A stretch of DNA of 64,000 nt from Amphiscolops sp. MND2022 (GCA_964187785.1 OZ076409.1:41852001-41916000); one strand, 5' to 3'; shown: positions 19,217 to 64,000, counted from the first letter of the stretch. Notes: generated by a model not told the origin, from the letters alone. A program made the numbers and translations.

Positions 19217-19431
19217 TGTGACATACGAAGGTCACAACCCAAAAAGAGCAACAGTGTTGTTGTCAAACAAACTCATAAACAACTGACTTAGCTACTGCTC
19301 TATTTATGTTTAGTTGATATGATGTAAAAGATACATTACTCTACCATTATGTATTTGAGATAGATACAATACAGACGAAGAGATACTACCGTACCTAACC
19401 TGTTTTAAATTTAGATTTAGCGATCTTAACA
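19217..19431 (+). repeat. Gypsy 5' LTR
   Basis: Identical to 24977-25191 except 2 adjacent bases (GT vs AC). Confidence 0.97.
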
Positions 19432-19450
19432 TGGCGCAGTAAGCAAGATT
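19432..19450 (+). promoter_or_regulatory. Primer binding site (tRNA-Ser-like)
   Basis: TGGCGCAGTAAGCAAGATT directly after the LTR; resembles the complement of tRNA-Ser 3' ends (recalled, not searched). Confidence 0.75.
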
Positions 19451-19516
19451 TTTCTTTTTCCAAATTTGTCCACCTCTTTTACCCTTTCTACCCTACCAAC
19501 ATACAACTATACTAGA

Positions 19517-24976: not shown

Positions 24977-25191
24977 TGTGACATACGAAGGTCACAACCC
25001 AAAAAGAGCAACAGTGTTGTTGTCAAACAAACTCATAAACAACTGACTTAGCTACTGCTCTATTTATGTTTAGTTGATATGATACAAAAGATACATTACT
25101 CTACCATTATGTATTTGAGATAGATACAATACAGACGAAGAGATACTACCGTACCTAACCTGTTTTAAATTTAGATTTAGCGATCTTAACA
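24977..25191 (+). repeat. Gypsy 3' LTR
   Basis: Direct repeat of 19217-19431, followed by TSD ACTAC. Confidence 0.97.
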
Positions 25192-33526: not shown

Positions 33527-36500
33527 CCACAACATTCCCACAGTGTACCTCTCTTTTTCAAAATGCGTTGTCTTCTCCAAAGTATCAAGTGGTTTAACAA
33601 CTGATCTGGATCGCCCGTCAACTTCCACTCGTGAACCATAACTTTCGTTGTCCCACCATGTCTTGATTTGTTCGTTCAAGTCGAAATCTGCAGGTTGGTA
33701 AACTGAACTATGACGACAGAATGATGTCAGTGACGACAGAATCTTTTTTGGCAGTCCACCCCATAGGACATCGAACAGCCAAGGGTTCACCTTGGTCACC
33801 GCGTTGATATACTGAGCGTCGAGTCAATGAGAAGCAACCTATTCCCAGGAGTGCTTTGACATCTTTCGGATTAAACTTGTTGGTCGAATACTTGATCAGT
33901 TGTGGGTATTGACTCTGCAATAGTCGAATATCATAGAAACTGTCGTTGATGACAAAATTTTGATGAATAGCCATATGGATATCTTAGTTTCCGTAGTCTT
34001 CCGAATGAAACGTGACTTTGACAAACTCACTGTCGTGGCATTCATTACTTTGTATTCCACTAACAGTCAGACCACGTTTGACTCGCTACAGCCTTACAGA
34101 ATCAGTTGATCGGCTGATGACTTATCAATCCATGACACACCAGACCCATTAACGACTGATGCAAGGATCTTCACTTTTTTCCCGTTGTTTGATAGGTAGA
34201 ATGCCAAAAGTGTTCACACTTACACTAACATGGGTCTCTTTAGTCTCCGTTGACGTTGTGTTAGAGATTTTGTTCCTTTTCTGGTCGGTGCAACAATCTG
34301 TTGTGACGCCTTTTGCAGCCGTTTATTCCACAGTCTTCCATTTTGCAATCCTTGACAGCATGTCCTTCGCGGAAACATAGGAAGCGCTCTTTGTTCTGCT
34401 TCACTTTTTTATACCGGTCGAAAGTAGCAAGTTTCTTCAATGCGTCACAAGTTCAAAATTCATGGGCATTGCCGAAGACACCGCATTTAATCGGAGCCTT
34501 AGGGCTAGCATTGAATGTAGGCAACCCACTCTAATTGGTGGTCGCCGACATGGATGATCGTGCTGTTGTTGCTCGGTCAGTCGACGTGGACTGCTTCTTG
34601 TCGCTGCTTTGTTTGAATTGAACCAGCAGTTCATCAAAACAAAAGCAACGTTGATCAACCACCCACAAACTCTACTCAACTTTGCAGTTTGATATTTCTA
34701 TCCTTTTGCAAAGGACAGTCATTTCGTTTTCAACCCTGGAGGTAGTTTTCTCACAGCGCTATTCAATAGAGACTATGAGCAAAAATCTTCTGTAAAACCG
34801 CACTGATTCAAGACACTACCACCCGTTGTTATGAACTGGGCATATTCAATGATAGCCGGTGAGTCATGAAATTTGTTGAAAAGGTAAGAGTGTATAAGTT
34901 TCATTAGAGCATTAACCACTGTTGCGGACTAACGTGTACCAAGCAGTGTGATTTAACGCCCCAGAGTTACCAAGACCTGCACATGCGGCTTTGGCATTGC
35001 CTTTGACCAACGTCTTTAAATGGCACGTTTTGGCATTGTCCTCGATTTGCGCATCGTGAATGAGTGCATTAAAGATATTGGACCATCCCAGAGGATCAAA
35101 TTCAGTTATCTTCAATTTTGGTAGACCAAAAAAATGTCCAATTGGGGAGGACAGCTTGGTAAATTGGCGTTGTGTCGAGACGTGACACCCTGTTGGGTTT
35201 TGCGCTGGCAGATTGTTCATAATGTTGGAACTTTTCGGCTTCTATCACTTCCGTCAATAATCCTTCTGCCTTTGCGCTCGGTTGAAAGATCCGCTCTCAA
35301 TTACCTTCCGTGGTTGTCCCCTACTTCGTGCAGTCACTGGTACTGGATCGCTTGAGATAACAGTGTTTCTTTCTGCAGTTTCCACAACATTCTGCGAAAT
35401 TTACTTTTAAATCTCCAGGAAGTCTGTTTTGATCTAACCAGCTTTTGATGTAGCTGTTTTCGTCGTCATCAAATGATAATGACATCACCCTGGGACTGAC
35501 AGTCGACCCATGACATGAGCCTTGTGCTACTTCAATTTGAAAACTCGTTCCATGCATTTTAATGGATGTCTGATCATGTAAATCTGCCAGCTCGCATGCT
35601 TCATTTGAACAAACGGAACAATGCTGAACTTGCATTGCTTCTTTTTCCATTTCCCGCTGCTTGCGTTGTAGCTCGAGTTCTTTTTCTTTTCTCTCAAACG
35701 CCATTCGTGAATCTTCTTCCAAAAATTTCGCTCGACTCTCAAGTCGACGAAGTTCACTTAGTCGTGAAGATCGAAGTCGGGTGTTGGAATGTTGATACTT
35801 GAAGGCTCACTGGCTACATTTTCCATTGTTGATGGAAAGTTGCTAGTGGATTGCTTCAGCTCATGACTCACGTCTGCTGGAGCATTGAACTTCGTAGAGC
35901 CTTCCTCGTACTTTGTTGACACGTCCCGTGAAAATGTGTCGTTGAGACTCTTCAAAAGTTTCAAGCGCTGGTTCATTTTCTCGGCAGCATATTCTTTGCG
36001 TTTGCCATGATCTGTTTTAGCAGCATTATTCGAAAGATCCTGAGCTTCCGAACAATCGTCGGCTACTTTTGCATTGTCAGCCTCAGGTTACACTGACTGG
36101 AAATACATTTCTCTGCTCTCTCGATCTTCATAGCCAATGCGTTCAATTGTTGCTTTCTGAAGTCCTCAGTGTACATTCCCACAACATTCCCACAGTGTAC
36201 CTCTCTTTTTCAAAATGCGTTGTCTTCTCCAAAGTATCAAGTGCTTTAACATCTGATCTGGATAGCCCGTCAACTTCCACTCGTGAACCATAACTTTCGT
36301 TGTCCCACCATGTCTTGATTTGTTCGTTCAAGTCGAAATCTGCAGGTTGGTAAACTGAACTATGACGACAGAATGATGTCAGTGACGACAGAATCTTTTT
36401 TGGCAGTCCACCCCATAGGACATCGAACAGCCAAGGGTTCACCTTGGTCACCGCGTTGATATACTGAGCGTCGAGTCAATGAGAAGCAACCTATTCCCAG

Positions 36501-38806
36501 GAGTGCTTTGACATCTTTCGGATTAAACTTGTTGGTCGAATACTTGATCAGTTGTGGGTATTGACTCTGCAATCGTCGAATATCATAGAAACTGTCGTCG
36601 ATGACAAAATTTTGATGAATAGCCATATGGATATCTTCGTTTCCGTAGTCTTCCGAATGAAACGTGACTTTGACAAACTCACTGTCGTGGCATTCATTAC
36701 TTTGTATTCCACTAACAGTCAGACCACGTTTGACTCGCTACAGCCTTACAGAATCAGTTGATCGGCTGATGACTTATCAATCCATGACACACCAGACCCA
36801 TTAACGACTGATGCAAGGATCTTCACTTTTTTCCCGTTGTTTGATAGGTAGAATGCCAAAAGTGTTCACACTTACACTAACATGGGTCTCTACAGTCTCC
36901 GTTGACGTTGTGTTAGAGATTTTGTTCCTTTTTCTGGTCGGTGCAACAATCTGTTGTGACGCCTTTTGCAGCCGTTTATTCCACAGTCTTTCATTTTGCA
37001 ATCCTTGACAGCATGTCCTTCGCGGAAACATAGGAAGCGCTCTTTGTTCTGCTTCACTTTTTTATACCGGTCGAAAGTAGCAAGTTTCTTCAATGCGTCA
37101 CAAGCTCAAAATTCATGGGCATTGCCGCAGACAGCGCATTTAATCGGAGCCTTAGGGCTAGCATTGAATGTAGGCAACCCACTCTAATTGGTGGTCGCCG
37201 ACATGGATGATCGTGCTGTTGTTGCTCGGTCAGTCGACGTGGACTGCTTCTTGTCGCTGCTTTGTTTGAATTGAACCAGCAGTTCATCAAAACAAAAGCA
37301 ACGTTGATCAACCACCCACAAACTCTACTCAACTTTGCAGTTTGATATTTCTATCCTTTTGCAAAGGACAGTCATTTCGTTTTCAACCCTGGAGGTAGTT
37401 TTCTCACAGCGCTATTCAATAGAGACTATGAGCAAAAATCTTCTGTAAAACCGCACTGATTCAAGACACTACCACCCGTTGTTATGAACTGGGCATATTC
37501 AATGATAGCCGGTGAGTCATGAAATTTGTTGAAAAGGTAAGAGTGTATAAGTTTCATTAGAGCATTAACCACTGTTGCGGACTAACGTGTACCAAGCAGT
37601 GTGATTTAACGCCCCAGAGTTACCAAGACCTGCACATGCGGCTTTGGCATTGCCTTTGACCAACGTCTTTAAATGGCACGTTTTGGCATTGTCCTCGATT
37701 TGCGCATCGTGAATGAGTGCATTAAAGATATTGGACCATCCCAGAGGATCAAATTCAGTTATCTTCAATTTTGGTAGACCAAAAAAATGTCCAATTGGGG
37801 AGGACAGCTTGGTAAATTGGCGTTGTGTCGAGACGTGACACCCTGTTGGGTTTTGCGCTGGCAGATTGTTCATAATGTTGGAACTTTTCGGCTTCTATCA
37901 CTTCCGTCAATAATCCTTCTGCCTTTGCGCTCGGTTGAAAGATCCGCTCTCAATTACCTTCCGTGGTTGTCCCCTACTTCGTGCAGTCACTGGTACTGGA
38001 TCGCTTGAGATAACAGTGTTTCTTTCTGCAGTTTCCACAACATTCTGCGAAATTTACTTTTAAATCTCCAGGACGTCTGTTTTGATCTAACCAGCTTTTG
38101 ATGTAGCTGTTTTCGTCGTCATCAAATGATAATGACATCACCCTGGGACTGACAGTCGACCCATGACATGAGCCTTGTGCTACTCGTTCCATGCATTTTA
38201 ATGGATGTCTGATCATGTAAATCAGCCAGCTCGCATGCTTCATTTGAACAAACTGAACAATGCTGAACTTGCATTGCTTCTTTTTCCATTTCCCGCTGCT
38301 TGCGTTGTAGCTCGAGTTCTTTTTCTTTTCTCTCAAATGCCATTCGTGAATCTTCTTCCAAAAATTTCGCTCGACTCTCAAGTCGACGAAGTTCACTTAG
38401 TCGTGAAGATCGAAGTCTGGTGTTGGAATGTTGATACTTGAAGGCTCACTGGCTACATTTTCCATTTTTGATGGAAAGTTGCTAGTGGATTGCTTCAGCT
38501 CATGACTCAGGTCTGCTGGAGCATTGAACTTCGTAGAGCCTTCCTCGTACTTTGTTGACTCGTCCCGTGAAAATGTGTCGTTGAGACTCTTCAAAAGTTT
38601 CAAGCGCTGGTTCATTTTCTCGGCAGCATATTCTTTGCGTTTGCCATGATCTGTTTTAGCAGCATTATTCGAAAGATCCTGAGCTTCCGAACAATCGTCG
38701 GCTACTTTTGCATTGTCAGCCTCAGGTTACACTGACTGGAAATACATTTCTCTGCTCTCTCGATCTTCATAGCCAATGCGTTCAATTGTTGCTTTCTGAA
38801 GTCCTC
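33527..38806. repeat. 2.6-kb tandem duplication inside BEL element 2
   Basis: 33527-36167 and 36179-38806 are nearly identical (scattered substitutions, one 14-bp indel); 11-bp filler at the junction. Confidence 0.97.
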
Positions 38807-45691: not shown

Positions 45692-45775
45692 AAAATACTG
45701 ACCCGGCAGATAAGGCCTAACATTTTACGACTTAAGTCGTAAAATGTTAGGCCTTATCTGCCGGGTCAGTATTTT
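45692..45775. repeat. Perfect 84-bp palindrome with no spacer
   Basis: 42-bp arms centred on CTT|AAG at 45733/45734. Confidence 0.95.
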
Positions 45776-48483: not shown

Positions 48484-48759
48484 ACTACCCATCATAGGTA
48501 GTTGGGAAAAACTTAAAAGATTACAAGGTTTGAGTCCTTGACACTTGGGTTCAAAAACTCATAGAGACCATATTTTTAATATAAAAGTGTTTTCAATTAG
48601 TGACGCAGGCGATTAGCTGAGACAGCAATTCAAGTGGCCGTGACCCAAAATATCCCTGTTTTGAGCCCTTCTAGAGTAAAAAGTTTTTGAACCCAAGTGT
48701 CAAGGACTCAAACCTTGTAATCTTTCAAGTTTTTCCCACCTTCTACGGAGAGGGTGGGA
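48484..48759. mobile_element. Small fold-back MITE
   Basis: 57-bp inverted arms 48503-48559 / 48682-48738 with 1 mismatch, extending imperfectly outwards. Confidence 0.75.
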
Positions 48760-49482
48760 AATAAGTTAGTTGGGCTTGGGCGAAGATGGCGTCCTATTTT
48801 ATATAAAAGTATGAATAGTTTAGGAGGAGTATCAAGCAGTTCCTTGGGCCTTATACAGCCAAACACGGCTCAAACCGTTTATACGAGGGATCAGGGATCT
48901 TCCAGGACATGACTTTACGACTTCTAATGACTGACGACGAAACTTAATTTATGAGTCTTTGGAATAAGCTCAAATTTTCCACGTTGTTAATTTTCAGATA
49001 AACATACAAACACGGACGACAAAACAATGTTATGTTAATCAACATTACTCAATGGATTTTGAAAAACTGAAATGCTTTGCTGCAATAATGATTCATTCCT
49101 TGAAGGATAAATTTGTTGGAACTGTTTTCCTTTCCACCGTGTTTTAGGCTTAACCCCAGAACTAGACTGTTGTTAGTAGAAGTTTGTTTACAAGAGGTTA
49201 TTCCCATTCTACACAAAGCTCAATGACAACTTCAAAAAAGCTCAAAATTAGGGAAAACATTGACTTCATATCTAAATTGTTGATGGCATGTTTTCGATCG
49301 CAATTCATCAAATATTGAAGTTTATTGTAGAAACATTTAATGAATGTTTTGAGAATGAAACAAAAACTTATCACGGCCTAGTCTTTTTCGAACAAATTGC
49401 TCTTGACTGTCACGCCAAGGTGACACCAACATGAAAGAAAACGTTTGAAGAGCGAAAATTATAGCAATTCGGCAATCACAGC

Positions 49483-49651
49483 AGTAGTATACGAATTCCC
49501 GATTCGGGCCAGTCAAATATATTTTTTTTAAAAAATGTTAATTATTATTATTTTTAAAATCAACGTTTTTTTCACAACTAACTGTTAAAAAATAACCAAG
49601 GCAAACCATCTAAAAATTAGTCATTTTTCACAACTGAAAAATTAACAAAAT
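49483..49651 (+). repeat. Polinton left TIR
   Basis: Inverted match to 63659-63830, differing mostly in homopolymer lengths. Confidence 0.95.
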
Positions 49652-49671
49652 TGATGAAAAATAACTATTAA

Positions 49672-50067
49672 ATGAGTTATTTATCATTCAAAGAATTTGT
49701 TAATAAATATGGATTAAAAAATGAAACAACTTCCAATGTAGAAATAAAAGAAATCTTAAAACTCATGAACACATCTTGTGGAATATATATGAGAGATGAT
49801 AAATTTATAACCACCAGTGGTATAGTTAACTTACATCCAACTAAAGGAACACGTTGGGTTATGTTTACAAACCAAAACTATTTCGATTCATATGGCTGTC
49901 CACCACCACTAAATATAACAAAACAAATTAATAATGGTATCTATTCAGAATATCAAATCCAGAAAGACGACAGTTATTGTGCAGCGTATTGTTTGTATGT
50001 GTTGTATCTCACAAATATAATTGGCTTCAAAAATGCAGTTTTAAATTTATACTACCAAAATTTATAA
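49672..50067 (+). CDS. Adenain-like cysteine protease (catalytic His replaced by Arg)
   Basis: GIVNL..GTRWV (family GxHWV), YFDSYG, QIQ..DSYCAAYC. Confidence 0.9.
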   Translation: MSYLSFKEFVNKYGLKNETTSNVEIKEILKLMNTSCGIYMRDDKFITTSGIVNLHPTKGTRWVMFTNQNYFDSYGCPPPLNITKQINNGIYSEYQIQKDDSYCAAYCLYVLYLTNIIGFKNAVLNLYYQNL

Positions 50068-50074
50068 TTCTTAA

Positions 50075-50269
50075 ATGAAGAATATTAATAATTATTCAGC
50101 TCAATTTAAAACTATTCAAAAACCAATGAATACCAATGAGAATCAATTTGATGAGAAAATAATAGAAAACAATAATCCAAAAAATAATCAAAAAAAGAAA
50201 TTATCAAAACAAAACCAAGACTTTATAAATAAGATATCCGCAAGTGAATTTAAACAATTTTTCGCTTAA
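50075..50269 (+). CDS. Small hypothetical Polinton protein (64 aa)
   Basis: Tightly packed between PRO and mCP with a TAAATG start. Confidence 0.6.
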   Translation: MKNINNYSAQFKTIQKPMNTNENQFDEKIIENNNPKNNQKKKLSKQNQDFINKISASEFKQFFA

Positions 50270-50272
50270 TAA

Positions 50273-51334
50273 ATGGATCTATCAAATTTTGTAACCTATG
50301 ATAAAAAAGAATCTCTTTTATTGAGTATTGCAAAATCTAATCAAGAAATTGTTGAAAATACTCATTCTAAACCACAAGAAACTTTAGAATTTAAAATGAA
50401 TGAACAAAAAGAATCTTTTTCATTCGATGTTCCCTTGGAGCTGCCAGAACAATGGATGATGGGAGTAACAAGTTTAGAAGTATATAACAGTGTATATAAT
50501 ATTACCAACAAAAATAACTCATTCCAGATACAACTAACAGACGAACAACTTAATGGGATTGATACAAAACTTGCAATGAATATTGAATACCTTCATAAAA
50601 CCAATCAACCAGATTTCAATAAAACAGTTTATGGTTTAATAAATACCACTTTCAAAAATAAAAAGAAGCTTCTAAAAAGTGATCTTGATAAAATCAAGGA
50701 TATAATTAACCAGCATGAAAGTGAAAACCTTCTCAATAAACTTAAAATTTTCGAAGTTATTGATCTCCCCATTATGAATGAAAAAATAGAAATAAAACTC
50801 CAACCTGGAATATATGAACTAAGTGATCTGAATACAGCAAAACAACAAAAATTACAATATTATCAAGATCATCGAGAATATAAAATAAATGGTGTAAATA
50901 TTAACATTGAAGCAGATACAATATCAATGAAATCAGTTTTAACAACTTCTAATCCCATTAATTTTAATTCAAAATTAAATGAACTTCTAGGATTCACAAA
51001 TACACACTATATACAAGGAACTCATATATCAGAAAAACCAGTTATGATAACAACGACAGACAAAGTTCATCTGAAATGTGATTGTGTAGGTGGTTCAATT
51101 GTTAATGGTATACAAGAACAAATCTTGTTTAGTTTTAATCTTTCCTCCCCACCAGGATATAAAATTATAGAAGAACCCATAATTATTTTGTATAAAAAAA
51201 TAAACAAAACAAGGTTAGATAGTATTCAATTTTTCTTAGAAGATTCCAACCAAAATCCAGTTGATTTCAATGAGGGAAACATTAACATTTATAATTCAAA
51301 TCATCTAGATTTAATTCTAATAAATGAGCTTTAG
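50273..51334 (+). CDS. Minor capsid protein (penton), C-terminal frameshift
   Basis: LEVYNSVYNITNKNN, VHLKCDCVGGSIVNG, PPGYKIIEEP..LYKKIN, NPVDFN; the expected ETLTFIIQI tail lies in another frame from ~51277. Confidence 0.8.
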   Translation: MDLSNFVTYDKKESLLLSIAKSNQEIVENTHSKPQETLEFKMNEQKESFSFDVPLELPEQWMMGVTSLEVYNSVYNITNKNNSFQIQLTDEQLNGIDTKLAMNIEYLHKTNQPDFNKTVYGLINTTFKNKKKLLKSDLDKIKDIINQHESENLLNKLKIFEVIDLPIMNEKIEIKLQPGIYELSDLNTAKQQKLQYYQDHREYKINGVNINIEADTISMKSVLTTSNPINFNSKLNELLGFTNTHYIQGTHISEKPVMITTTDKVHLKCDCVGGSIVNGIQEQILFSFNLSSPPGYKIIEEPIIILYKKINKTRLDSIQFFLEDSNQNPVDFNEGNINIYNSNHLDLILINEL

Positions 51335-51707
51335 TAAATTTAAAAATAATTCATACTGTGTTGGTGGAAAACATTATTCCGCTACCACAAATATTCGTGG
51401 AGATATCACTCAAAATAAAAAAACAGGAGCACCTGTTAAATTATTAAGAGGCACTTGTTCAACTTGTAAAAGAAATAAGAGTCTCATTGTTTCTGATCAA
51501 ACAATACAAGCAGAAGGATTAGGTGACTTTTTCCGAGGTATAGGAAAAGCCGCCAAGAATGTCGGAAAGAAAATTTTAAATAATCCTGGACGAGCATTAG
51601 AACTCGCAGCTAATATTGGTACAGCAGCAGCAAGTAAAAATCCAAAACTTATTGCCGCAACTGCTCCTGATATTATAAAATTTGTTCATCAAGGAAAAGG
51701 CCTGTAA
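51324..51707 (+). CDS. Candidate virion core / membrane-lytic precursor protein
   Basis: Cys/His-containing N-terminus (YCVGGKH..CSTC), amphipathic GLGDFFRGIGKAAKNVGKKIL, AEG-L and GKG-L sites; probable premature stop (GKGL*LGKIH). Confidence 0.7.
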   Translation: MSFSKFKNNSYCVGGKHYSATTNIRGDITQNKKTGAPVKLLRGTCSTCKRNKSLIVSDQTIQAEGLGDFFRGIGKAAKNVGKKILNNPGRALELAANIGTAAASKNPKLIAATAPDIIKFVHQGKGL

Positions 51708-51774
51708 TTGGGTAAAATTCATTGATTTACAGCCTTGCTGTAAATTAAATTTTATTATTTATGAATAATAAATT

Positions 51775-52727
51775 ATGTATTCAATTCATAATCGAGATGA
51801 TTTAGAAAAGTTAAAAAAATTGCAAGAATCAAAATCTTTAATAAAAGCTGAAAGATTAAAACAACTCCTAGGGAAGCAAGATTTTCATTACGATATGGAA
51901 GAAGTTTTTGAATCTGTTACCAAAAATCAGACCAAACAACAACAACAATCTGAAAAGCGAATACAAGCACTACGGGATTCTACTCAAACTACAACACAAG
52001 CAATACAAGACCAAACTAGAGCAATACAAGAAACGAGTAATACTCTTAATAAAAAATTACATAAATCAGTTAAAGAAGGAATACAAGAATATGATAAAAT
52101 TACAAATTGTAATAAATTGTTACAGATCTGGTTAACTCAAACCAAGTTGATTCTAGTATCGTTAAGACAGTTTCTAATTTGCTTAATGACAACAACAAAA
52201 GTCAATGTAGTTTAGAACCCGTGGAAGGAAGTTCCAATTTTGTCACAATTAACCATACTGATCCTCAACAAGTACTAATCAAAGGTTCAACAATGACTTT
52301 CCCGAATGGTAGCACGTACTATTTAAAAGATCCGGATCTTTCATTCTTTATAACGAATACACACTTCGATAATCTACCACAAAATAGCAATATAATTCAC
52401 AGTTTTTTAAATGATATGAAATATAATATATATCATGCAGATAAAAAATCAAGAATATATCATTTAATTAAAGCTATATTTAATACATACTATCAACAAC
52501 CCCAATTAGGAACTGGATTGAATTTTATTTTCCTTCCATCTGATCCAGATGAACTTGTAGATCAAATAAAACTACTTTATTTTGAAAAAGTAGGAGGAAA
52601 TGATAATCCTATGCTTAGTGAACAAATCATAGCAAGTGCTGATAAACTTTTACAATACCAATGCATTACAACAAATCAGTATCAAAACCTTATACAAACT
52701 TTTAGTTTGCAAACCTTTGGTTTGTAA
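51775..52727 (+). pseudogene. Conserved Polinton accessory protein, split by a frameshift
   Basis: Overlapping ORFs 51775-52215 and 52179-52727; Q/T-rich coiled coil; C-terminal GTGL..LPSDPDELVDQIKLL..K.GGN motif I associate with Polinton proteins. Confidence 0.65.
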
Positions 52728-52736
52728 GCACTTTTA

Positions 52737-53726
52737 CTAAAAAGGATCAGTTTGTGGACTAAACACCTGGTATTGCGGATTAGATTCATTACATATCATA
52801 TACTTACTCCCATTTTTATCTTCTAACCTATTTATTAATAAATAATTATACTTATCCCGCCATGCTTCTTTACACAAACTTTTGAATTCATCATAAGACA
52901 TATCAAAACCAGCAATATCTCTATAAATGTGTTCAACATCTTTCAATGTTTGTTGAAATAAAATTATAATATTACTATTGTTTCTAATTGTTCTTTTAGG
53001 TAAATCAAAGTATGACTGTGATAAATAATAAACATCTAAATCATCATGTCTTCCTCTAGTAGAAAATGGATCTATTAATTTCTGTGAAGTGTCCAACATA
53101 TCATCAAATACAACACAACAATTTTGAAAATCTTGTATTGTTCTATCTTCTAGATCTTCGTCCACTGAAATATTTTCTATTTCTGTATTTGTATATTGTC
53201 CCGGAGATCTAATTATTATATGTATTTGTTTTTCTTTATCATATAATCGAATTAATTGTAATTTGTTTAATAACAAATGGGTCTTACCACAAAATGATGG
53301 GCCAACTATCAATGTCCTATTACAATTATTATCAATATTATCATTATCATCATTTGTAATGATATTATTTGTATGATTATTATTATCATAATTTTCATTA
53401 TGATTTATAATTTCATTATTTGTATAATTATTTTTATCATGATTTTCATTATGATTTATAATTTCATTATTTGTGTAATTATTATTATCATGATTGATAA
53501 TACATCTTTTTAAATGTTTTGATAAACAAGTTTTATTGAATTCCTTATTACAGAATTCACATTTTACGTTTTTATTGAAACATTCTATACATGTACTATA
53601 CAATTTATCATTTTTATATTTGTAAAAATCTGTTTTCAGTATATTACACACTTTACATCTTTTTTTATTCTCACAATCGGAACAGACAGATTTTTCATTA
53701 CTTTTTCCACAAATTATACACTTCAT
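52737..53726 (-). CDS. A32/FtsK-type packaging ATPase 1 with N-terminal Cys-rich region and Asn-rich linker
   Basis: Walker A GPSFCGKT, Walker B VVFDD, TRGRH..YLSQSYF..TIRNN; ORF open. Confidence 0.93.
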   Translation of the reverse strand: MKCIICGKSNEKSVCSDCENKKRCKVCNILKTDFYKYKNDKLYSTCIECFNKNVKCEFCNKEFNKTCLSKHLKRCIINHDNNNYTNNEIINHNENHDKNNYTNNEIINHNENYDNNNHTNNIITNDDNDNIDNNCNRTLIVGPSFCGKTHLLLNKLQLIRLYDKEKQIHIIIRSPGQYTNTEIENISVDEDLEDRTIQDFQNCCVVFDDMLDTSQKLIDPFSTRGRHDDLDVYYLSQSYFDLPKRTIRNNSNIIILFQQTLKDVEHIYRDIAGFDMSYDEFKSLCKEAWRDKYNYLLINRLEDKNGSKYMICNESNPQYQVFSPQTDPF

Positions 53727-53732
53727 TTATTC

Positions 53733-53846
53733 AGTAAAAATCACTAAATCACTAAGCAAATTCACTACGGGCATATCTTCTTAAGTGTAACTTCTTTGCT
53801 TAGTGACAAAAAAATGCTCTTAGTGAATTTGCTTAGTGATTTTACT
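53733..53846. repeat. Intergenic inverted repeat between the two ATPase genes
   Basis: AAATCACTAAGCAAATTCACTA (53746-53767) / TAGTGAATTTGCTTAGTGATTT (53821-53842), perfect 22-bp arms with imperfect extensions. Confidence 0.85.
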
Positions 53847-53890
53847 AAGAAAATTACTAAGAAATCGAACCCATTTTTTGGGTAATTATT

Positions 53891-54928
53891 TCATTTTAAT
53901 GTATTTGCGATGCCAGCTTTACTACCGTAACTAATTGCTTGTTCCATTATAATATTCTGAAATTCCTGTTTAAGTGAGTCTGAAATAAGTGGTTGTTGCA
54001 TTCTATCGATGTAATTGTCTATTTTAGATTCATTTACTTTAATTTTATTTTGTTTACAATAATATACATAATAATAAGCTACATTAAAAGGTGTTATTTC
54101 ACTTGTTTGATCTGACATATCTTCTAGGAATATTTTAAGTTTATTATATTCTTCACCTGTAAAGAATTAACTTTCATATTTTACATAATCCTCTGGACCC
54201 CATTTATGTTTAGTTGTATCGTAGACTAGTTGGTATTTGTGATTGAGTATTTTATACTTTTGTGATCTAGTATCAAATTCAATTACACCAAATTCTAATT
54301 GGTCATGATATTGTTTCCAATTAAGTTGTTTGATACTATAACAACTCATCATTGTTTCGAAAAATGTATCTGGACTATTTATTGTGATATATAACTTAAA
54401 ACAATTTTCTCTAACAACAAGTAGAACATCCTTTGAATAATGTGCTTAACTAATAAGATAAATAACTTGTATATTATGATGTCTTCCAAACCGGAATAAG
54501 TTTTCTACGTTTGTTTTGAGTTGCTTATAAGCACCCGCATCATCTAAAATGATTGTTTTATCAGCAAGTGATTCAATGTTAATATTTTGTAACTGCAACA
54601 ATTGTATAAATCTACCCGGGAACTCGGCTTCATCTCTACCGAATACTATAAAATCGCTTTTAGTTTGATCTAAATAATACTTCAGGAAACTAGTCTTACC
54701 TGATCCACTAGTACCATACACCAAAAAATGACAATTGGTATTTGTGATTGGTTTGACTTGTGGCTCGTCTTTTGGTTGATCAGTTAGATGGGACTTTTTA
54801 AATCCCTTGAATTGTTTTAGTTTTTGGTGTATTTTTTCGTAATGTCTAGGTCTAATATAATACCAATAAATATATAAAACTATAATAACAATTACACATA
54901 ATAAACCTATATAAAATTTTTTATTCAT
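53891..54928 (-). pseudogene. Second A32/FtsK-type ATPase with N-terminal transmembrane helix (346 codons, 2 in-frame stops)
   Basis: ORFs 54446-54928, 54167-54352 and 53891-54118 share one frame; GTSGSGKT, IILDD, FRFGRHHNIQVIYL..HY..VREN; hydrophobic FYIGLLCVIVIIVLYIYWYYI. Confidence 0.88.
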
Positions 54929-54942
54929 TTATTAGGAAATAA

Positions 54943-55797
54943 ATGAGTGAAAAGATGAAAGAAATCACTAAAGAAATATTCTCTCCTGTAATCAAGAAGT
55001 TTCAAAGAATTCAAATACAAACTCACTATAAAGATGAGTGTTGGAGTATCGATCTGATAGACAGGTCTAGCTTAGCAAAATACAACAAAAACTACAAATT
55101 TTTTTTTACAATAATTGACAATCCTACTAAATATGCATGGGCAATTCCTCTTAAAGATAAATCAGGAAAAAGTACAACAACTGCATCTAAAAGTCTTATT
55201 GAAAAAGCAAAAAGAAAACCTGATAAAATTTGGTCAGATAGAGGTAAAGAGTTTTATAATAAAACATTTTTGGATTTTCTTAAACAAAATGAAATTCAAA
55301 TTTATTCAACTAATTCAGATTTAAAAGCTGTTTTTGTTGAACGATTCAATAGCACATTTCTGGACTTAATCAAAGAACCCATGTACATTGAAGGAAAATC
55401 TTGTTGGTTGAATCATCTTGATGCTGCTTTACAAAAGTATAATAATCGTGTCCATGGTACAACAAAAATGACACCTTTTGAAGCTAATAATCAACCAATA
55501 GATCCACCTACTTTTGTTAATAAACCGGAACAACCCAAATTCCAAGTGGGAGACCATGTAAGAGTTCCTGATAAACGCAATTTATATAGTAAAGGTTACA
55601 CAACAACTTGGAATAGAGAACTTTTTAAAATACATAAAATTAATCCAACTAACCCAGTTACGTATGGTTTAGTAGATGAAAACAACGAACAAATAGAAGG
55701 AAAATATTATGAACAAGAACTTTTAAGAAGTATATTCAACTATAAATCTCACAACAAAACGTTAGAAAGTATGAATATTTTCCACCAGTATGGGTAA
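54943..55797 (+). CDS. Retroviral-type (rve, DDE) integrase without chromodomain
   Basis: WSIDLID, IWSDRGKEF, VERFN; KFQVGDHVRV..KGYTTTW C-terminal domain. Confidence 0.95.
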   Translation: MSEKMKEITKEIFSPVIKKFQRIQIQTHYKDECWSIDLIDRSSLAKYNKNYKFFFTIIDNPTKYAWAIPLKDKSGKSTTTASKSLIEKAKRKPDKIWSDRGKEFYNKTFLDFLKQNEIQIYSTNSDLKAVFVERFNSTFLDLIKEPMYIEGKSCWLNHLDAALQKYNNRVHGTTKMTPFEANNQPIDPPTFVNKPEQPKFQVGDHVRVPDKRNLYSKGYTTTWNRELFKIHKINPTNPVTYGLVDENNEQIEGKYYEQELLRSIFNYKSHNKTLESMNIFHQYG

Positions 55798-55814
55798 TTA
55801 TATTTAAATAAATA

Positions 55815-56531
55815 ATGTCAATTCATAAATTTGGTTATAGTGCCGGAAGCTTACAAAAAGATAAGATTGAGAATTTAGATAAAGAATTGGAATCACAAAC
55901 CAAATTAATCAACTTAAAACTTAATGATATGCAAAGCACCATAAATGGTATGACTGATAACCTACAAAATACCGAATTGCGTGTACAAGAAGTTAATTTT
56001 GATGATGGTGAAATCAAGGTAGTAGTCAATGCAAAGTTATTCTTAGACATAAATATAAATATAGAAGACTTGAAAATCAACCTGAAGTACTTAGAACAAG
56101 ATGTTAAAAATAAATTTTTAGAAAAGAAAAAAGAAAAAATTTTGGATGCTGCCAAGTTAGTGGACGAACAACAAACCATTTTACGTAATCATTTCGAGAG
56201 AAACCTTATTTCGGAATTGGAAAAATGTAAAAATCAAGCAGTCAAAGATACTATACAGTTACTATACAACAAAGGATTGTTTGACTCATTTGAAAATAAA
56301 GACCAAATCTTTAATGAGTACTTATATTTTCATGATGAATACTTGTTGGAAAAATACGGAAAAGAAATAAAGACATCAGATGGTGTGTAATATTTATCAG
56401 ACTTGGACTATTCAACGCGAGAAGATATTTTGAAGTGCTTAAATATAGATGAATACAAAGATATTGTTGATCTTAATTATAGAATGAAACTAACCGATAC
56501 TGAGACAACCTTTATACTTTTTAAAGACTAA
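55815..56531 (+). pseudogene. Coiled-coil hypothetical protein, probable premature stop at 56388
   Basis: 191-aa ORF; the frame stays open for 46 more codons to TAA 56529-56531; N-terminal MSIHKFG. Confidence 0.6.
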
Positions 56532-56565
56532 TTACTTTATAAATTAAGTTTTTATTTAAAGTTAA

Positions 56566-57087
56566 ATGAGTGAAAAATTGTACCCTTGTTTACAACCAAG
56601 TGATAGTCTTGATCTTAGAACAAAAGAAATAAATAGTTTTAATAATTCAATTCAAAATATAAAAGATATTCAAAATTTTTATAATCATGAAGCTAAAAAG
56701 TATAAAAAGAAATCTAAAACATATAAAATTATAAACGGTTTGATTCAATCTATTGATGGAGTTTCAGTACTAGCAGTATCATCAACATGTGTCACGTTGA
56801 GTGTCACAGGAGTTGGACTTGTTGTTGTACCTATAGCAAGTGGTATAGGTGCAGGTTTATGTATATTTAGTAAAATTGCTGGAAAGTACCTGAAAAGAGA
56901 AGAACAACACAATATTAAAAAATATACTCTTGCTGGAAGAACACTACATGATTTCTGTAAACTACATTCAAAATGTTTAGCAGACAATAAAATTGATCTG
57001 AATGAATACAACAAATTAAAACAAACTTACGATCTATATAAAACAAATAAAACTAAATCAAATTCTGAGTTTACTTTTTTAGGATAA
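56566..57087 (+). CDS. Membrane protein with hydrophobic hairpin and N-terminal LYPxL motif
   Basis: MSEKLYPCL; basic helix followed by VSVLAVSSTCVTLSVTGVGLVVVPIASGIGAGLCIFS. Confidence 0.75.
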   Translation: MSEKLYPCLQPSDSLDLRTKEINSFNNSIQNIKDIQNFYNHEAKKYKKKSKTYKIINGLIQSIDGVSVLAVSSTCVTLSVTGVGLVVVPIASGIGAGLCIFSKIAGKYLKREEQHNIKKYTLAGRTLHDFCKLHSKCLADNKIDLNEYNKLKQTYDLYKTNKTKSNSEFTFLG

Positions 57088-57155
57088 ATTTATTTAGTAG
57101 AAATAAAATCAGTATAAATTTTAAATCATCATCATGAATATTTATTCTTTTATAA

Positions 57156-58395
57156 ATGGAATTATTTTCTTTGAAAAATAAATATGCTATGGATAAACCA
57201 ATTCATAAAATTGATTTTATTAAATACTTACCTGGTAGTTTAGCTACAATCAACAACAATAATTCAAATATTTCCATCATCTTCCCAAGAGAAGATGCAT
57301 ATATTTGTTTACAAAACTCATATATATCATTAGAATTTGAAGTTCTTAAAAATGATGATACAAGATATGCAGATGGTGATCAAATAAGCTTGGTCAACTT
57401 TGGACCTGTTGCTTTATTTAGTGAAGTTAAGTTAACTACTAGTTCAGGTAAACATTTAGAAAAGGTTAATAGATAAAAGATAATCTACACCCAATTTCAT
57501 TGATGTATAAACTTTTAACATCTAATCAACAAACAAGTCAATTGATGTACGGATTTGAAGAATCACAAGCAACTAGAAGACAAGAACTAACAAATAATAA
57601 AACAGAGAAAGGAACCTTTTTTGTTAGAATAAAATTAACTGATATATTTGGATTTGCTGATCAAGAAAAATAACTTATGGATTGGGTTATACTCTAACTT
57701 TAAAACGAAATAATCATAATGATCCTATCATCAGGGACAATGGTGTAGATGCTGCAAAAATAAATATAAAAGACATCTCCTGGTACATTCCACACTACAC
57801 ACCATCAATGGAAAACCAACAACTCGTGATGGATCAAATAATAGACAAAGATCCAACTGAACTGTATTATATTGAACGAGTTGTTTTTAGAATAGATGAT
57901 AACACGAATAATTCGTGGACATTTGAATTAGGTAACAGTGGAGAATCGACACCAAGTTTTATAATTGTTGGATTTCAAGCTAGAAATAAAGTTGATTCAC
58001 AAACACGTGATGATGCAATATTTGATAGGTTACCTGTTTCAAATGCAGTTTGTAAAATAGGATCAGAAAAATATCCCGATGATGGAATAGAATGTGACTA
58101 CAACCGGGATAAGTATGATCAAGCATACAGTGAAATTGAAAACTTCTATTTGTTAAAAAGTGAAACTAATCTACTCAATCCATTTATTGATTTGCACAAA
58201 TTCAGGACAAATTATAATTTTTATGTATTTGACTTATTCAAACAAGATGATAATATTGCGAGTCAACCTATTAGATTAGAATTTAAACTTGATGCTGCCA
58301 TTAATGTAGCAGACTATATAGCTTATGCCCTAGTCCTAACACCCAAGCTGATAAGTATCAGCAGTGATGGACAAAAGCATTTTGATTTATTATAG
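57156..58395 (+). pseudogene. Major capsid protein (double jelly-roll), two frameshifts
   Basis: REDAYICLQNSYISLEF, PVALFSEVKL, SWYIPHYTPS, PSFIIVGFQ, IGSEKYP, FYVFDL; apparent 11-bp insertion at ~57468 and 1-bp loss at ~57668; about 410 aa reconstructed. Confidence 0.85.
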
Positions 58396-58521
58396 ATAAA
58401 TATAATAATTTAAAAATAATATTATATATATATATATAAAAGGGTATCAGAGATTCCTTATTCAAAAAATATAATAAATAAATTTTAAAATAATATTTTT
58501 ATTTTTATAAATTAAATATAA

Positions 58522-61500
58522 TTATAAAACATGTGCTCGATCACTTATCAACTTCACAAGTTGTTGATGGGTTAGATTTTCTTTTTGGTACCAAATATTC
58601 AATAAATTTCTTCATCTGTTTTCTTGCTACCGTCATCATTTATAATTAAATTTTTATAATACAAACCAATTAATTTCAAACAATATATACAAGGACAATC
58701 ACCTTTTTGTGTGTGTTTATCCCATGGTAAACTTTTTATTGGATTTATATACAAACGTTTATCATCAAAAGGATTCAAACACGACTTAGGTTGTTTTTCA
58801 ACTGTAAGGTTGTGTAAATTAGATCTAATTGATATATTTGTAGAACTTGATGTTTCTGACTTAAACAATGAATTTTTGTAGTGTTCACATTTGGGAGCTT
58901 TTTGTATTCCTTTTTGTTTCGCTTTTTGAATACTATTGTAACTAAAAGAATATGACTTTGATCGCAATGCTGTGAAGGTATCTAACACCAAAACTGGACT
59001 TGTTTCAATTTTCATTTTTCCTATAACTTTTTTGTTAATAGGATCATATAATTCATCACTTGGGTGTAATTCACTGAAATCAATTTCATCTTTGTTTTCT
59101 TGTAAAAAGTTTATTAGTTCTTGGTGGTTTGTATCAAAACTCAGAATAAAACTATCATTGTCCATGTAGTGTAGTTGTATGGATTGTTTCCAATATGGTT
59201 GTAATTTGTTATAATAAAATTCATACATTAATAGTTTTGATAGTTCTAAAACTGTAAAACCTAAATAAATTGGTTTATCAAAGACTCTTTTTTCTTTATC
59301 AAACTTGTACACACTAAACTTAGAATAATGATCCACAAGCCTTTGAAACTTAACTTGGATTGTCTTTTTATTATTTGATCTATTTGAGAATGATCAATGA
59401 ATTCTAGATTGGTTCTATCTCTTACATTTTCCATAGTCTTCCCAAAAAAAGCATTATTCATTAATTTATAAAGATCCTTTTCAAAGTTTGTTTTCGCTAC
59501 TGTGCGTTTCTGAGTATTATGATCGATATATTTACCTAACCATGGACTTTGTTTAAACTTATAGATAGTATGTATCTTCGTTACTTTCATCCCTTGGTTA
59601 AGATAAAACTTAAACATCCTATAATGTATCATATTTTTCGATTTATTGGTTACATCACACATAAGTTTTGGGGTTGGTTTGTAATTAGGTTGATTTACAT
59701 TATTCATATAAGCTGAGAATAAGTCTGGATCTGCTTTTGTTTGATACGGACAAAAAGGAAAATTTTTTGTTTTTTCTTTAATTTCTGCTGGATATTCTAA
59801 ATCACATTCAATGAAGTAACCATATTCACTATCATCAGGTATTTGTAATAAATCTTCTACTAATTGATCTTGTGAGTAGTTTTCTGGAAGTTGTAGTTTT
59901 TCGAATTCGCCTGTAGGAAGATATTGACTCATTGCCCATCCATATAGATTATTTGCATCGATATATAAGATTTGTTTATTTTCATCAGATTGCACGTGAC
60001 GATCACCCATAACACTTGAAATTCCTCCACGGATATTATTTTCAAGTAGTAGAAGTAGGTTTTTATCTTTTATAAAGTTTAACTTTATATTAGTCAACTT
60101 CAAACCTGCTTTCCATGTATAACCAGGTAGAGAGTAACTATACAAAGCATTAATTTTATATTCTCGTGTAGAACTTTCCACAAAGTTTTCAAAAACATCA
60201 GCTAATTGAAGAACATCCATTTTTAAATATAACATTTTTAATTCTCTTCCATTTTAATTTTATTTTTATCAATTAATTCTTGGGTTCTTTTTATATCATC
60301 ATCTGATGGATAAGATTGTGTTAATGTTGACCAATAATCTTCTTTGGTTAGATTCAATGGTTCCTGAAAGTTATCAAAATTTAAGTATTCATATGGATAA
60401 GCTAATTTCTTTTTAAATAATTTGTTTTTAAATCCATTTTCATCCATTATTGGGAAACTGTCTAAACTCTTAACTAATTTATCTAAACTACTACTTAGAA
60501 AACGGTATGAATCCAGGAAACGTAAGCAACCTACTTGAATTGATACATAATTTTCCATTGACTTTGGGATTATTTTTGGTTCATACCCCTTTTCGAAAGC
60601 TTGTATTAAGAGTTCTTGAAATATAAGATGACAATCATACCCAGAGAAGTTGTGGAAAAATATAGGAACAAAACTTGATGACCTTTGTTTACAATTTATG
60701 TTACATATATTATGAGCTGCTCCTCTGTATTTTCCTGTTAGATGATCATGATCTCTTACCTTATCTTCTGTAAAAGGCTCTTCACAAAGCCAACACTCTT
60801 CTGCAAGTTTGAATGATTCTTCTTCTTCAGGAGTTATTTGTAATTCTAAGTTTGTTTTAAAATATTTATTTGCTTCTAGTTCTTATTTTAACATTTCCTT
60901 TACAAACCACTTGGTACAATCTGTTCCAAAGTATGAGCTGTACTTGTTTCCAAATGGTGAAACTACATAAAAGCCTACTGCAATTGGAATTTAGTTAAAT
61001 AATACTTTGGGGTTATTTTGAGGTTGATTGATACATTCGAAATCAGCATATACTCTTATTGGTACAGGAACTTTCATATAATAATCTTCGAACTTCAACT
61101 GATCCTTCCAACTGAATGTGATTTTAGTTGGTTGCTGTTTTTGACAACGATCTATATGATCAATTAGAACTGGTTGTGAACTAAATGCTGTTAAACATCT
61201 TCTACACACCCATCGCATGTGTCAATCTTTATTTATTAGACAATGTAACCTTGTTATTAGACAATAGTGATTCTCATACAATAACAAATCTATTTGTGGT
61301 TGTAAGTAATTTTTGTTAACGTGGATTGGTGTTAAAACATTTCCAGTGAGTTCAAATACATTTATGTTTAAATTATTTAAGTTTTCGAACTTGAGAATAT
61401 CTTTAATTTTCATGGGGAATTCTAAACCATTTAAAATGAGTTTGTTCGTGTGCATTGAATAACTTGATGTTCTATTTTTATGATCCTCAACGGGAAAAAG

Positions 61501-62282
61501 GTGTGCTAGGATGCACCACAAAAAGCAAAATTGATCATCATTTTTTATATTCATAATTGATTTATTATTCTTATACTTTTCTGGCAACTCAATGTATGAA
61601 GATGCTTGAATATCATTAATTTTATATATTTCTAATATAACTTCTTCTATTTCTTGAAATTGAAAACCTGATCCTTCTAATTGTTCATCATCTAGTTTCT
61701 GCATTAATGTGTTATGAGTATCTTGTTGTGTACCGGATTGCAAGTGATTATATATTAAATCTGATTTTATCCATCTTTTAAATACTTCTTCTTCTCCATT
61801 GACTATTTTTGAAAATTTAGCTAGATATCTCAATTGATATTAATATCGGGGAAAATAATTTTTACTAAGTAAGTCATTTATGTTATGATCAAGATTTTCA
61901 GTTGGATTTATTTTAAGTTTAATGTATGTATTTTCATTCATAATTATTTCTACTCCATTACCGAAGGTGTTTTGTATACCGAAGGTGCTTTGCATATTGT
62001 TTTGTTGACGGTTTTGACGGTTTTGTAAATGAATTTCACTTTGGAAATGTCTTGTTTTATCAGATATATATCTATTACAATCTTCACACCAAACACGTCG
62101 TTGTTCGGTTTTATTTTTATGTTCATCTGAATTTAGATGACTAGACTTACCTGATAAGGGCATATATAAATTACAATTTTTACAATAATATTGCTTAATT
62201 TTTTTTGATGACCTATTGAATTTATATGATCGGATTTATAAGCTTTTTTATAATCAGAATTACAGATACTACAATTCTCCAT
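58522..62282 (-). pseudogene. Protein-primed family B DNA polymerase (pPolB) with N-terminal zinc fingers, OTU-like protease and EndoVII insert
   Basis: ExoI VYADFEC, ExoII FHNFSGYD, PolA YIDANNLYGWAM, PolB KLMNNAFFGKT, PolC YMDNDS; at least 8 stops or frameshifts. Confidence 0.95.
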
Positions 62283-62356
62283 TTCCTTTTATTAAGGAAA
62301 AAATAGTTTAATTAAAATTTTTCAATATGTCTTTTTTAAAAAAAATGTTTTTTTTT

Positions 62357-63142
62357 ATTTTTCTCACCTGTGGGTTCAAGATGAAAAAATTTGTTAGGAA
62401 CAAAATTTGTTCATATTTTAGATGTCTCCAATTTTATTTACTGACTTTTCACGGTAGGACCAACCAGTCTTGAGAAAAATGCGAAAAACCATATTTTCAC
62501 ACCTGTTTTCTCACCTGGTAATCAGTGGGTCCAAGATACAGAAAACTTTCTTCCAGAAAAAAGTTTGTCTTGTTATTGTCTATAACTTTGATTTTCTGCG
62601 TCGGCATTGTAGGATGACTCAATTTCGAGAAAATTGAGAAAAACCAATTTTTCACACCTGTTGGGGCAGGTGGTAATCAGTGGGTTTTCAGTAACGAGCT
62701 GAATTTTGGTGAGTAGATTTCTTTTCTGATGCACTACATTTTTGTTCCCATGAGTCATCACGCTAAAACTAACGGTTGAGCGAGTTCCTTTGATCTTGCA
62801 AGTTTCAAGGTCAACCCTGATCTCAACACCTGTTCGGGTCACATACAAGCTGAGTATACCATAAGAAAGATCATATATGAGAGTGGACCTAATTTACAAC
62901 TGTTACTAGTCTTACTCCAACCGTTTTCGTGAAAATTGAGAAAAACCATTTTTTCACACCTGTTAGGGCAGGTGATAATCAGTGGGTCCAAGATACAGAA
63001 AATATTCTTTTTGAAAAAAGTGTATCTTGGTATTGTTTACAATTTTGATCTCCTATGTCATTTCGCTGGGAAGAGTCATTCTCGAGAAATTGGGGAAAAA
63101 CCCTATTTTCACACCTTTTTTGGCACCTGGTAATCAGTGGGT
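62357..63142. repeat. ~155-bp-period diverged tandem array upstream of pPolB
   Basis: Core TTTTCACACCTGTT..(CACCTG/CAGGTG)GTAATCAGTGGGT ending at 62530, 62685, 62987, 63142; partial cores ending at 62375 and 62839. Confidence 0.85.
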
Positions 63143-63658
63143 TACTTTTAGAGGACACCCTTAAGAACAAATTTTGTGTAATTTTTAATTTTCTACAACT
63201 TTTATTTCTAATGTTTTTCTCAAAAATGATTTCCTGTTGAGATATTGAACAAAAAATGTTTTCCCATGTATTAAGATTAGGTATAATTCACTAAGTCATG
63301 AAATAACTCGCTTGGAATTTATACTCGGTGAAACAAAAAGGCAAACCAAAATTCAAACCAAAACTCAAACCAAAACCAAAATTCAAATAATTTCAGAAAT
63401 TATCAGAATTTCCGATTTGGTTTAAATGCTTTGATCTACTTTCATGTTTCTCGAGTGTGAAATGTCATTTTGTCATCACTGCACACTTCACTGCAAAAAT
63501 GAATTGAATTGCACATGTTACACTTTTAAGCCAGCGTTGCTGTAATTCAATCCAAAAAATTTTTGCTACACAAACTTTCTCTATTACCATAATGGAGGTT
63601 AGTGAATTTTTGCTTCATGACAAAATTGTTTATTAATAAATTTTGCTCATTGATTTTT

Positions 63659-63830
63659 ATTTTGTTAATTTTTAGCTGTGAAAAATGACTAATTTTTAGA
63701 TGGTTTGCCTTGGTTATTTTTTAACAGTTAGTTGTGAAAAAAACGTTGATTTTTTTTAAAAAAATAATAATTAACAATTTTTAAAAAAATATATATTTGA
63801 CTGGCCCGAATCGGGAGTTCGTATACTACT
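63659..63830 (-). repeat. Polinton right TIR
   Basis: Inverted match to 49483-49651. Confidence 0.95.
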
Positions 63831-64000
63831 CACAGCACCTTGAGGAGTCTGCATTCCTTCATAATTGCTTTTCCATTTAGGCTTCAAGCAAACTACGAAT
63901 TCATGTCGAACCTGGATAAAGATCGCTAAAGCCATTTAAAAGCGCATTCAAAGAAACAATTAACAAATTTTCATCCAAAAACCACATCTGAAAATTTTGA

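Follow-up and report, generated by a model that had tools for sequence, protein, structure and literature searches.

The 64,000-nucleotide stretch of Amphiscolops sp. MND2022 analysed here (GCA_964187785.1, OZ076409.1:41852001-41916000; hereafter the window) contains, at 49483-63830, a complete but decayed integrated Polinton/Maverick of a high-copy family. Polintons have AG...CT ends and are flanked by 6-bp target-site duplications (TSDs). The terminal inverted repeats (TIRs) of this element read 5'-AGTAGTA...TACTACT-3', are 94.2% identical over 173 columns (E 9e-70) and are bordered on both sides by CACAGC. All of the defining features for which we tested were found, namely TIRs with a TSD, pPolB, an rve integrase, a protease, an A32 ATPase and both capsid proteins, major (MCP) and minor (mCP), and the original prediction of a complete endogenous Polinton with intact TIRs and a 6-bp TSD was therefore borne out. 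The element is 14.3 kb in size and its genes are ordered as protease (+), mCP (+), ORF3 (+), ORF4 (+), ATPase-1 (-), ATPase-2 (-), integrase (+), ORF8 (+), ORF9 (+), MCP (+) and pPolB (-), where ORF denotes an open reading frame. The tight packing described earlier holds, with genes occupying 83% of the element, and the earlier count of about 12 genes becomes 11. Our main finding concerns the two adjacent ATPase genes: this family probably carries two A32-type ATPases, of which ATPase-1 is an ordinary packaging motor and ATPase-2 is a conserved, predicted membrane-anchored motor for membrane-linked assembly or packaging. The ends of the element and the two ATPase genes are as follows.

49477-49482, no strand: target-site duplication, left copy (CACAGC)
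49483-49651, + strand: left TIR
52737-53726, - strand: ATPase-1, A32-type packaging ATPase, 329 aa, open frame
53891-54928, - strand: ATPase-2, two in-frame stops in the window copy (Pox_A32, E 3e-5)
63659-63830, - strand: right TIR
63831-63836, no strand: target-site duplication, right copy (CACAGC)

Two A32-type ATPases

ATPase-1 corresponds to the one ATPase that related elements carry, matching those of the Polinton-like loci L002 and L003 with E values of 1e-32 to 1e-33 (34% identity to L003); it has added N-terminal zinc fingers that are Cys-rich, and also an Asn-rich repeat. ATPase-2 consists of a predicted N-terminal transmembrane helix, an A32/FtsK-HerA core and an extra, conserved C-terminal domain of about 100 aa whose fold is unassigned. 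The two proteins are 26% identical over 104 columns, and an invariant His follows the fourth core strand of ATPase-2 where ATPase-1 has Gln. Among 1045 candidates, relatives of ATPase-2 formed 325 clusters at E<=0.001, of which the top 120 are 59-92% identical and comprise 845 member sequences, as compared with 666 for the best 120 MCP clusters. The Walker A, Walker B and arginine-finger motifs are present in 110, 112 and 109, respectively, of these 120 clusters, and a strongly hydrophobic 19-residue window (Kyte-Doolittle score, KD, of at least 1.8) with a basic stretch after it occurs in 96 of the 101 relatives whose N-terminus is long enough. Conservation of both the motifs and the N-terminus across divergent subgroups (60-92% identity) implies, as judged from sequence, that ATPase-2 is under selection.

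A second ATPase gene is unusual among Polinton-like elements. Of 105 loci fetched for comparison, 40 have an A32-like ATPase; none of these 40 has two ATPase genes, and none has an ATPase with a hydrophobic window at KD>=1.8 (three ATPase matches in L097 are pieces of one gene). The earlier claim that two ATPases are present and unusual has thus gained support, as the second gene is conserved in the family and pairs of ATPase genes are absent from the other loci. Viral contigs yielded no close relatives of ATPase-1; for ATPase-2 there was a single weak match, in L001, covering Walker A alone. An anchored and a soluble A32 ATPase paired in one 14-kb genome were not found elsewhere in our searches.

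Structural comparison places the ATPase-2 core among viral packaging enzymes and DNA pumps. The best match, the packaging NTPase B204 of STIV2 (Z 13.5, rmsd 3.3, 160 residues aligned), stands about 2 Z above the next; other A32/FtsK-HerA NTPases share the core fold, with VirB4, TcpA, HerA and Zot at Z 10.8-11.7 and the range extending to 9.6 once TrwB is included. Sequence-level kinship is absent, identities to B204 and to the membrane-anchored TcpA, TrwB and Zot being 13-16%. These matches bear on the possibility that ATPase-2 belongs with DNA translocases such as TrwB, FtsK or Zot and would move the element's DNA across a membrane, at the nuclear envelope or from cell to cell, apart from capsid filling. 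Coupling proteins are membrane-anchored, with the anchor N-terminal to an FtsK-HerA core, so that both the architecture of ATPase-2 and the presence of TcpA, VirB4, HerA, Zot and TrwB among its top structural matches favour such a role. We nevertheless consider it unlikely, given that the best match is a viral packaging NTPase, that the top neighbours in the Atlas and BFVD are all viral P-loop or A32-type proteins, and that no channel partner is evident in the element, although ORF9 is hydrophobic.

In another alternative, ATPase-2 has an accessory role, either in remodelling the membranes of the host or as scaffold for a site of replication or assembly, with no direct part in moving DNA. The invariant His in place of the Gln of ATPase-1 and the extra conserved C-terminal domain are compatible with this idea, as are the two A32-like proteins of Medusavirus stheno in the BFVD list (ranks 1 and 21), which show that larger viruses can have extra paralogues. 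Retention of the Walker A, Walker B and arginine-finger motifs is what would be expected of a ring-forming motor, and we regard a purely accessory role as rather improbable. Origin of ATPase-2 as a recent duplicate of ATPase-1 was also considered and is unlikely at 26% identity, while a common origin of the two is not rejected.

The scheme that we favour combines an anchored motor with a conventional Polinton life cycle. The integrase would insert the element with a 6-bp duplication, pPolB would copy the linear genome by protein priming from the TIRs, and MCP and mCP would build a capsid matured by the protease; these four activities are attributed to Polintons in the accessible text of PMC11071308. 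ATPase-1 would then fill the capsids with DNA, and its zinc fingers may read a four-copy repeat near the right end (62460-63143). The N-terminal helix of ATPase-2 would hold this second motor in a membrane, anchoring either the packaging step or the genome itself. From the modelled core and predicted helix, coupling of assembly or packaging to a membrane is the most likely function of ATPase-2, an assignment that we make with moderate confidence.

Several observations weigh against this interpretation. The adjacent layout of the two genes was seen at the DNA level in the window copy only, and ATPase-1 was not searched for across the family. Family-wide linkage depends on comparable member counts and on contigs of equal size, nine of which link ATPase-2 to the 120 MCP rows and 14 to the pPolB rows entered (89 of 120). 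The number of ATPase-2 clusters (325) is far below that of MCP clusters (1305), and ATPase-2 may therefore occur in certain subfamilies only. The membrane helix was predicted from hydropathy, and the structural model of ATPase-2 is weak (mean pLDDT 60, below 50 in the C-terminal domain), with a reliable part at approximately residues 60-235. As VirB4, TcpA, HerA and Zot also score highly, the fold cannot tell packaging from transport. The ATPase tree places ATPase-2 at the end of a long branch, apart from ATPase-1, yet a joint clade is not rejected (p-AU 0.11). Finally, the 40 comparison loci include many incomplete ones and a few duplicates.

Start motif, family and relatives

TAAATG stands at the start codon of eight of the 11 genes, as against 28 of 494 background ATGs (P 1.5e-8; the motif was noticed before its enrichment was tested). 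It matches the poxvirus late-promoter motif. The genes concerned include both ATPases and both capsid genes and exclude pPolB. A start motif common to ATPase-2 and the capsid genes but not to pPolB suggests that ATPase-2 is co-regulated with the virion module, and places it within the element's own expression scheme. All three long ORFs of L028, the nearest outgroup by pPolB, also have TAAATG at the start codon, and no such start was found in eight other related multi-gene loci.

Among 1432 candidates, the MCP search found 1305 clusters. The best 120 are 79-92% identical and lie nearly all on long ENA contigs, with one sequence on each contig; in 91 of the 120 the MCP is at least 390 aa long. 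Among the 89 rows listed for the pPolB search, identity is 65-94% and 16 proteins reach at least 1200 aa. On these match counts, identities and lengths, we infer that the family is large and fairly recent and retains full-length ORFs, with hundreds of relatives 80-94% identical and many of them full length, and the intact relatives that had been anticipated are indeed present at the protein level. A few relatives at 65-82% identity lie on short contigs of other sources. Close relatives of the MCP were absent from viral and metagenome contigs, and those of pPolB were absent from prokaryote genomes.

Beyond the family, similarity falls. Among MCP representatives at the 50% level (408-460 aa), full-length identity drops from 80-90% to 51% and then to 39% or less. 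The family, together with three or four outliers, forms a long-stemmed clade inside the PF21738 group in an MCP tree made by a quick method (SH-aLRT 99), and a fully supported long-stemmed clade with sister families on contigs of a similar kind, L026 and L027, in a pPolB tree (FastTree), with L028 outside. Neither tree contains named reference Polintons; the lineage thus appears distinct among the sequences reached and is not proven to be undescribed.

These data also address whether the element is an ordinary member of a catalogued Polinton/adintovirus family, in which ATPase-2 has already been mapped or is a passenger in some copies. Every other gene except ORF8 has a counterpart in related elements, the MCP is a PF21738 member, clusters are less numerous for ATPase-2 than for the MCP, and our comparison took in neither Repbase nor the adintovirus supplementary maps. 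Against this stand the fall in full-length MCP identity and the maintenance of ATPase-2 in subgroups 60-92% identical. Moreover, a literature search found no Polinton or Maverick with a double ATPase, its scope lying outside supplementary genome maps (PMC8502044 and two 2026 preprints), Repbase and most subscription papers. On balance we think a catalogued family very unlikely.

The original prediction of an undescribed lineage survives in part. The distinct, long-stemmed MCP and pPolB clades and the second ATPase agree with it, but three other traits put forward as novelties do not: an MCP of about 410 aa is not atypically short, as L005, L023 and L063 have MCPs of 399-407 aa; a compact size of 14.3 kb is little different from the 15-19 kb of related viral contigs; and membrane-active ORFs are not atypical, since genes homologous to ORF4 and ORF9 occur in L002, L003 and L092 and the class is described in the accessible text of PMC8502044.

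Remaining genes and comparison with known Polintons

The other genes of the element, and a non-coding repeat, are listed below.

49672-50067, + strand: adenain/Ulp1-type cysteine protease, 131 aa, open frame, by homology to related loci
50273-51334, + strand: mCP (penton), 353 aa, by alignment and phmmer (E down to 3e-19)
51324-51707, + strand: ORF3, 127 aa, DUF5679-like zinc ribbon and strongly amphipathic basic helix
51775-52727, + strand: ORF4, conserved Polinton accessory gene with one frameshift (frames overlap at 52116-52215)
54943-55797, + strand: rve (DDE) integrase, 284 aa, open frame (Pfam rve, E 3.5e-11)
55815-56531, + strand: ORF8, function unassigned, 192 aa to a stop at 56388-56390, the frame then open for 46 more codons
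56566-57087, + strand: ORF9, conserved Polinton protein, 173 aa, hydrophobic central segment (KD over 19 residues 2.25)
57156-58395, + strand: MCP, double jelly-roll, about 409 aa, frameshifts near 57475 and 57665 (PF21738)
58522-62282, - strand: pPolB, about 1250 aa, four in-frame stops, four frameshifts, altered motif C, no intein
62460-63143, no strand: conserved block, about 65 nt long, in four copies at spacings of 155, 302 and 155, non-coding, upstream of pPolB

The protein encoded at 49672-50067 had no protease match in Pfam and was recognized by phmmer against the best related loci (E 1e-7 to 1e-11); the His of its catalytic motif, present in all five aligned relatives, is Arg in the window copy. 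The mCP, assigned to the single-jelly-roll type by sequence and position, has an insertion of about 70 aa that is absent from five relatives. At its N-terminal end ORF3 is similar to the DUF5679 domain of a DUF5679-PLA2 protein in L003 (pairwise E 2e-5). It also has an amphipathic helix (hydrophobic moment 2.10), and no match was found to a gene of L003 that looks similar; judging from sequence, ORF3 is likely to be a membrane-lytic virion protein. The C-terminal part of ORF4 matches L002, L003, L092 and L019, and ORF9 matches L002, L003, L089 and L092. ORF8 had no family match in Pfam, NCBIfam or PHROGs and no counterpart in the related loci. Modelling of an intact MCP relative, P0060, gave a double jelly-roll (DJR) fold (pLDDT 85, pTM 0.86), for which Foldseek retrieved the MCPs of PBCV-1, mavirus and iridovirus (E ~1e-12).

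The pPolB aligns to the whole of its relative P0235 at 80-91% identity and has zinc fingers at its N-terminus, a Cys/His region resembling OTU and an insert resembling endonuclease VII. No paper linking endonuclease VII with a Polinton pPolB came up in our literature search. Sister proteins match PF03175 (E ~1e-14), whereas P0235 has no such match at E<=0.01. In the accessible text of Starrett et al. (PMC8502044), the Beta adintovirus has an OTU-bearing PolB less than 30% identical to the pfam03175 type, together with GasderminX and Cupiennin-like genes. The weak or absent PF03175 match of our pPolB would fit the Beta type, and Cys and His motifs can be made out by eye.

Lesions in the window copy comprise eight in pPolB, two frameshifts in MCP, two stops in ATPase-2 and one frameshift in ORF4; the frames of the integrase, ATPase-1, mCP, ORF9 and the protease (with its altered His) are open. 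Because of the stops, frameshifts and altered motif C of pPolB and the lesions in other genes, this copy is predicted to be unable to replicate on its own. It is therefore disabled, as had been proposed, although the suggestion of few lesions per gene does not extend to pPolB, with its eight frame lesions.

With Polintons/Mavericks (Polintoviricetes; animal adintoviruses) the element shares AG...CT TIRs, a 6-bp TSD, pPolB, rve, a protease, an A32/FtsK ATPase, a DJR MCP and an mCP, as well as amphipathic or hydrophobic accessory proteins of the kind reported in the accessible text of PMC8502044. It differs from them in having two ATPases, one predicted to be membrane-anchored and one with zinc fingers, in its TAAATG starts, in the long stems of its MCP and pPolB, and in the lack of a detected PLA2 domain. 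A PLA2-like gene in the virion module is a trait of Alpha adintoviruses, or of the phospholipase-bearing group 2. A Pfam scan of 19 window ORFs found neither PLA2 nor gasdermin, and NCBIfam and PHROGs gave just generic P-loop, transposase, endonuclease VII and intein matches. Membrane-active genes such as PLA2X, GasderminX and the cupiennin-like genes are the usual adintovirus cargo according to the portions available of Starrett et al. (PMC8502044), and phospholipase is common in Polinton group 2 according to those of a preprint (bioRxiv 10.64898/2026.06.19.733378). The nearest modules, in L003, do carry a phospholipase (PLA2), in a DUF5679-PLA2 gene, where the element has instead its DUF5679-like zinc ribbon with an amphipathic helix.

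Seven loci from IMG/VR and JGI contigs (L002, L003, L004, L092, L005, L023 and L063) have MCPs of the same PF21738 family. These loci share the pPolB type (the endonuclease-VII-like insert was checked in L003), most have homologues of ATPase-1, mCP and integrase, and some have homologues of the protease, ORF4 and ORF9. They differ from the element in pPolB sequence (32-35% identity), in gene order and in having one soluble ATPase each.

Inteins, repeats and flanking DNA

A sister family of polymerases, represented by P0317 and 59% identical to a piece of the window pPolB, contains a complete 346-aa intein in motif C, which starts with Ser, includes a LAGLIDADG endonuclease and ends in His-Asn with Thr as the next residue. 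Among the 15 listed members of the P0317 cluster (136 in all, on long contigs), the intein is present in seven and absent from six, and the site is not reached in two. The intein-free alleles of this family have three different sequences at the insertion site; upstream of it, identity to P0317 is 95-98% in the two that were measured, P0352 and the related P0318. Such diversified empty sites in near-identical alleles would be expected if cleavage favoured alleles that escape it. A different subclade (L027:10-4197, equal to P0336) has the same intein at the same site, with one stop; there the intein is 65-79% identical, as against 52-62% for the exteins. In the family of the window element the intein site is empty and canonical in sequence (48 of 55). 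Two P0317-family contigs agree in size with contigs holding close MCP relatives of the window element. No close relatives of the intein were found in viral contigs, and P0317 had no sequence match in the PDB.

Homing endonuclease inserts in Polinton pPolBs are known, with intein invasions suggested as their source (PMC11071308, accessible text). Our literature search found no report of an intact intein in a Polinton pPolB, and a word search of the accessible text of PMC10710043 gave no occurrence of 'Polinton', 'animal' or 'metazoa'. If the sister-family intein does lie in an animal chromosome, it would represent intein homing inside an animal nuclear genome, which our searches did not find in print.

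A broader possibility, which we put forward tentatively and doubt more than we believe, is that this lineage uses a dedicated, anchored FtsK-type motor, beside the usual packaging ATPase, to make particles that contain a membrane or to pump its genome across the cell membrane, in the manner of PRD1 or of conjugative pumps, and that in the same radiation a homing intein spreads between endogenous copies of a nuclear genome, probably that of an animal, and causes escape changes at the active site of the polymerase. As far as we have searched, such an anchored-motor architecture has not been described for animal Polintons. The hundreds of recent copies, with many full-length ORFs, a start motif shared by the virion genes and a second motor predicted to be anchored, may offer a concrete handle on whether animal Polintons make virions and on how they leave and enter cells.

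The four-copy block at 62460-63143 is a candidate packaging or regulatory signal. It had no match in Rfam, and an interpretation as a microRNA-like hairpin cassette found no support, the hairpins being short and inconsistent (z -2 to -3.5, 30 shuffles). A strong minus-strand hairpin, formed from a AAACCAAAA-type repeat, lies at 63355-63430, some 230 nt inward of the right TIR; its z score for a 100-nt window is -5.9 (30 shuffles).

The element differs in composition from its surroundings, with a GC content of 28% as against about 38% in the flanks. The ratio of observed to expected CpG is 0.54 for the element, as against 0.92-0.94 for the flanks and 1.17 for a long terminal repeat (LTR) retrotransposon; the low value may reflect either element-specific methylation decay or viral CpG avoidance. 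No second copy of the element was found within the 64-kb window, the remainder of which is eukaryotic DNA rich in repeats; this setting and the element's kin point to a likely animal host. The repeats include the decayed LTR retrotransposon, at 19430-25051, which has a gag zinc knuckle, reverse transcriptase, RNase H and an integrase zinc domain and appears Ty3/Gypsy-like from its domain order, and duplicated retrotransposon-like fragments at 33368-38396. The left flank of the element holds a perfect 84-bp palindrome (45692-45775) and a 242-bp element resembling a miniature inverted-repeat transposable element, with 60-bp inverted ends (48500-48741).

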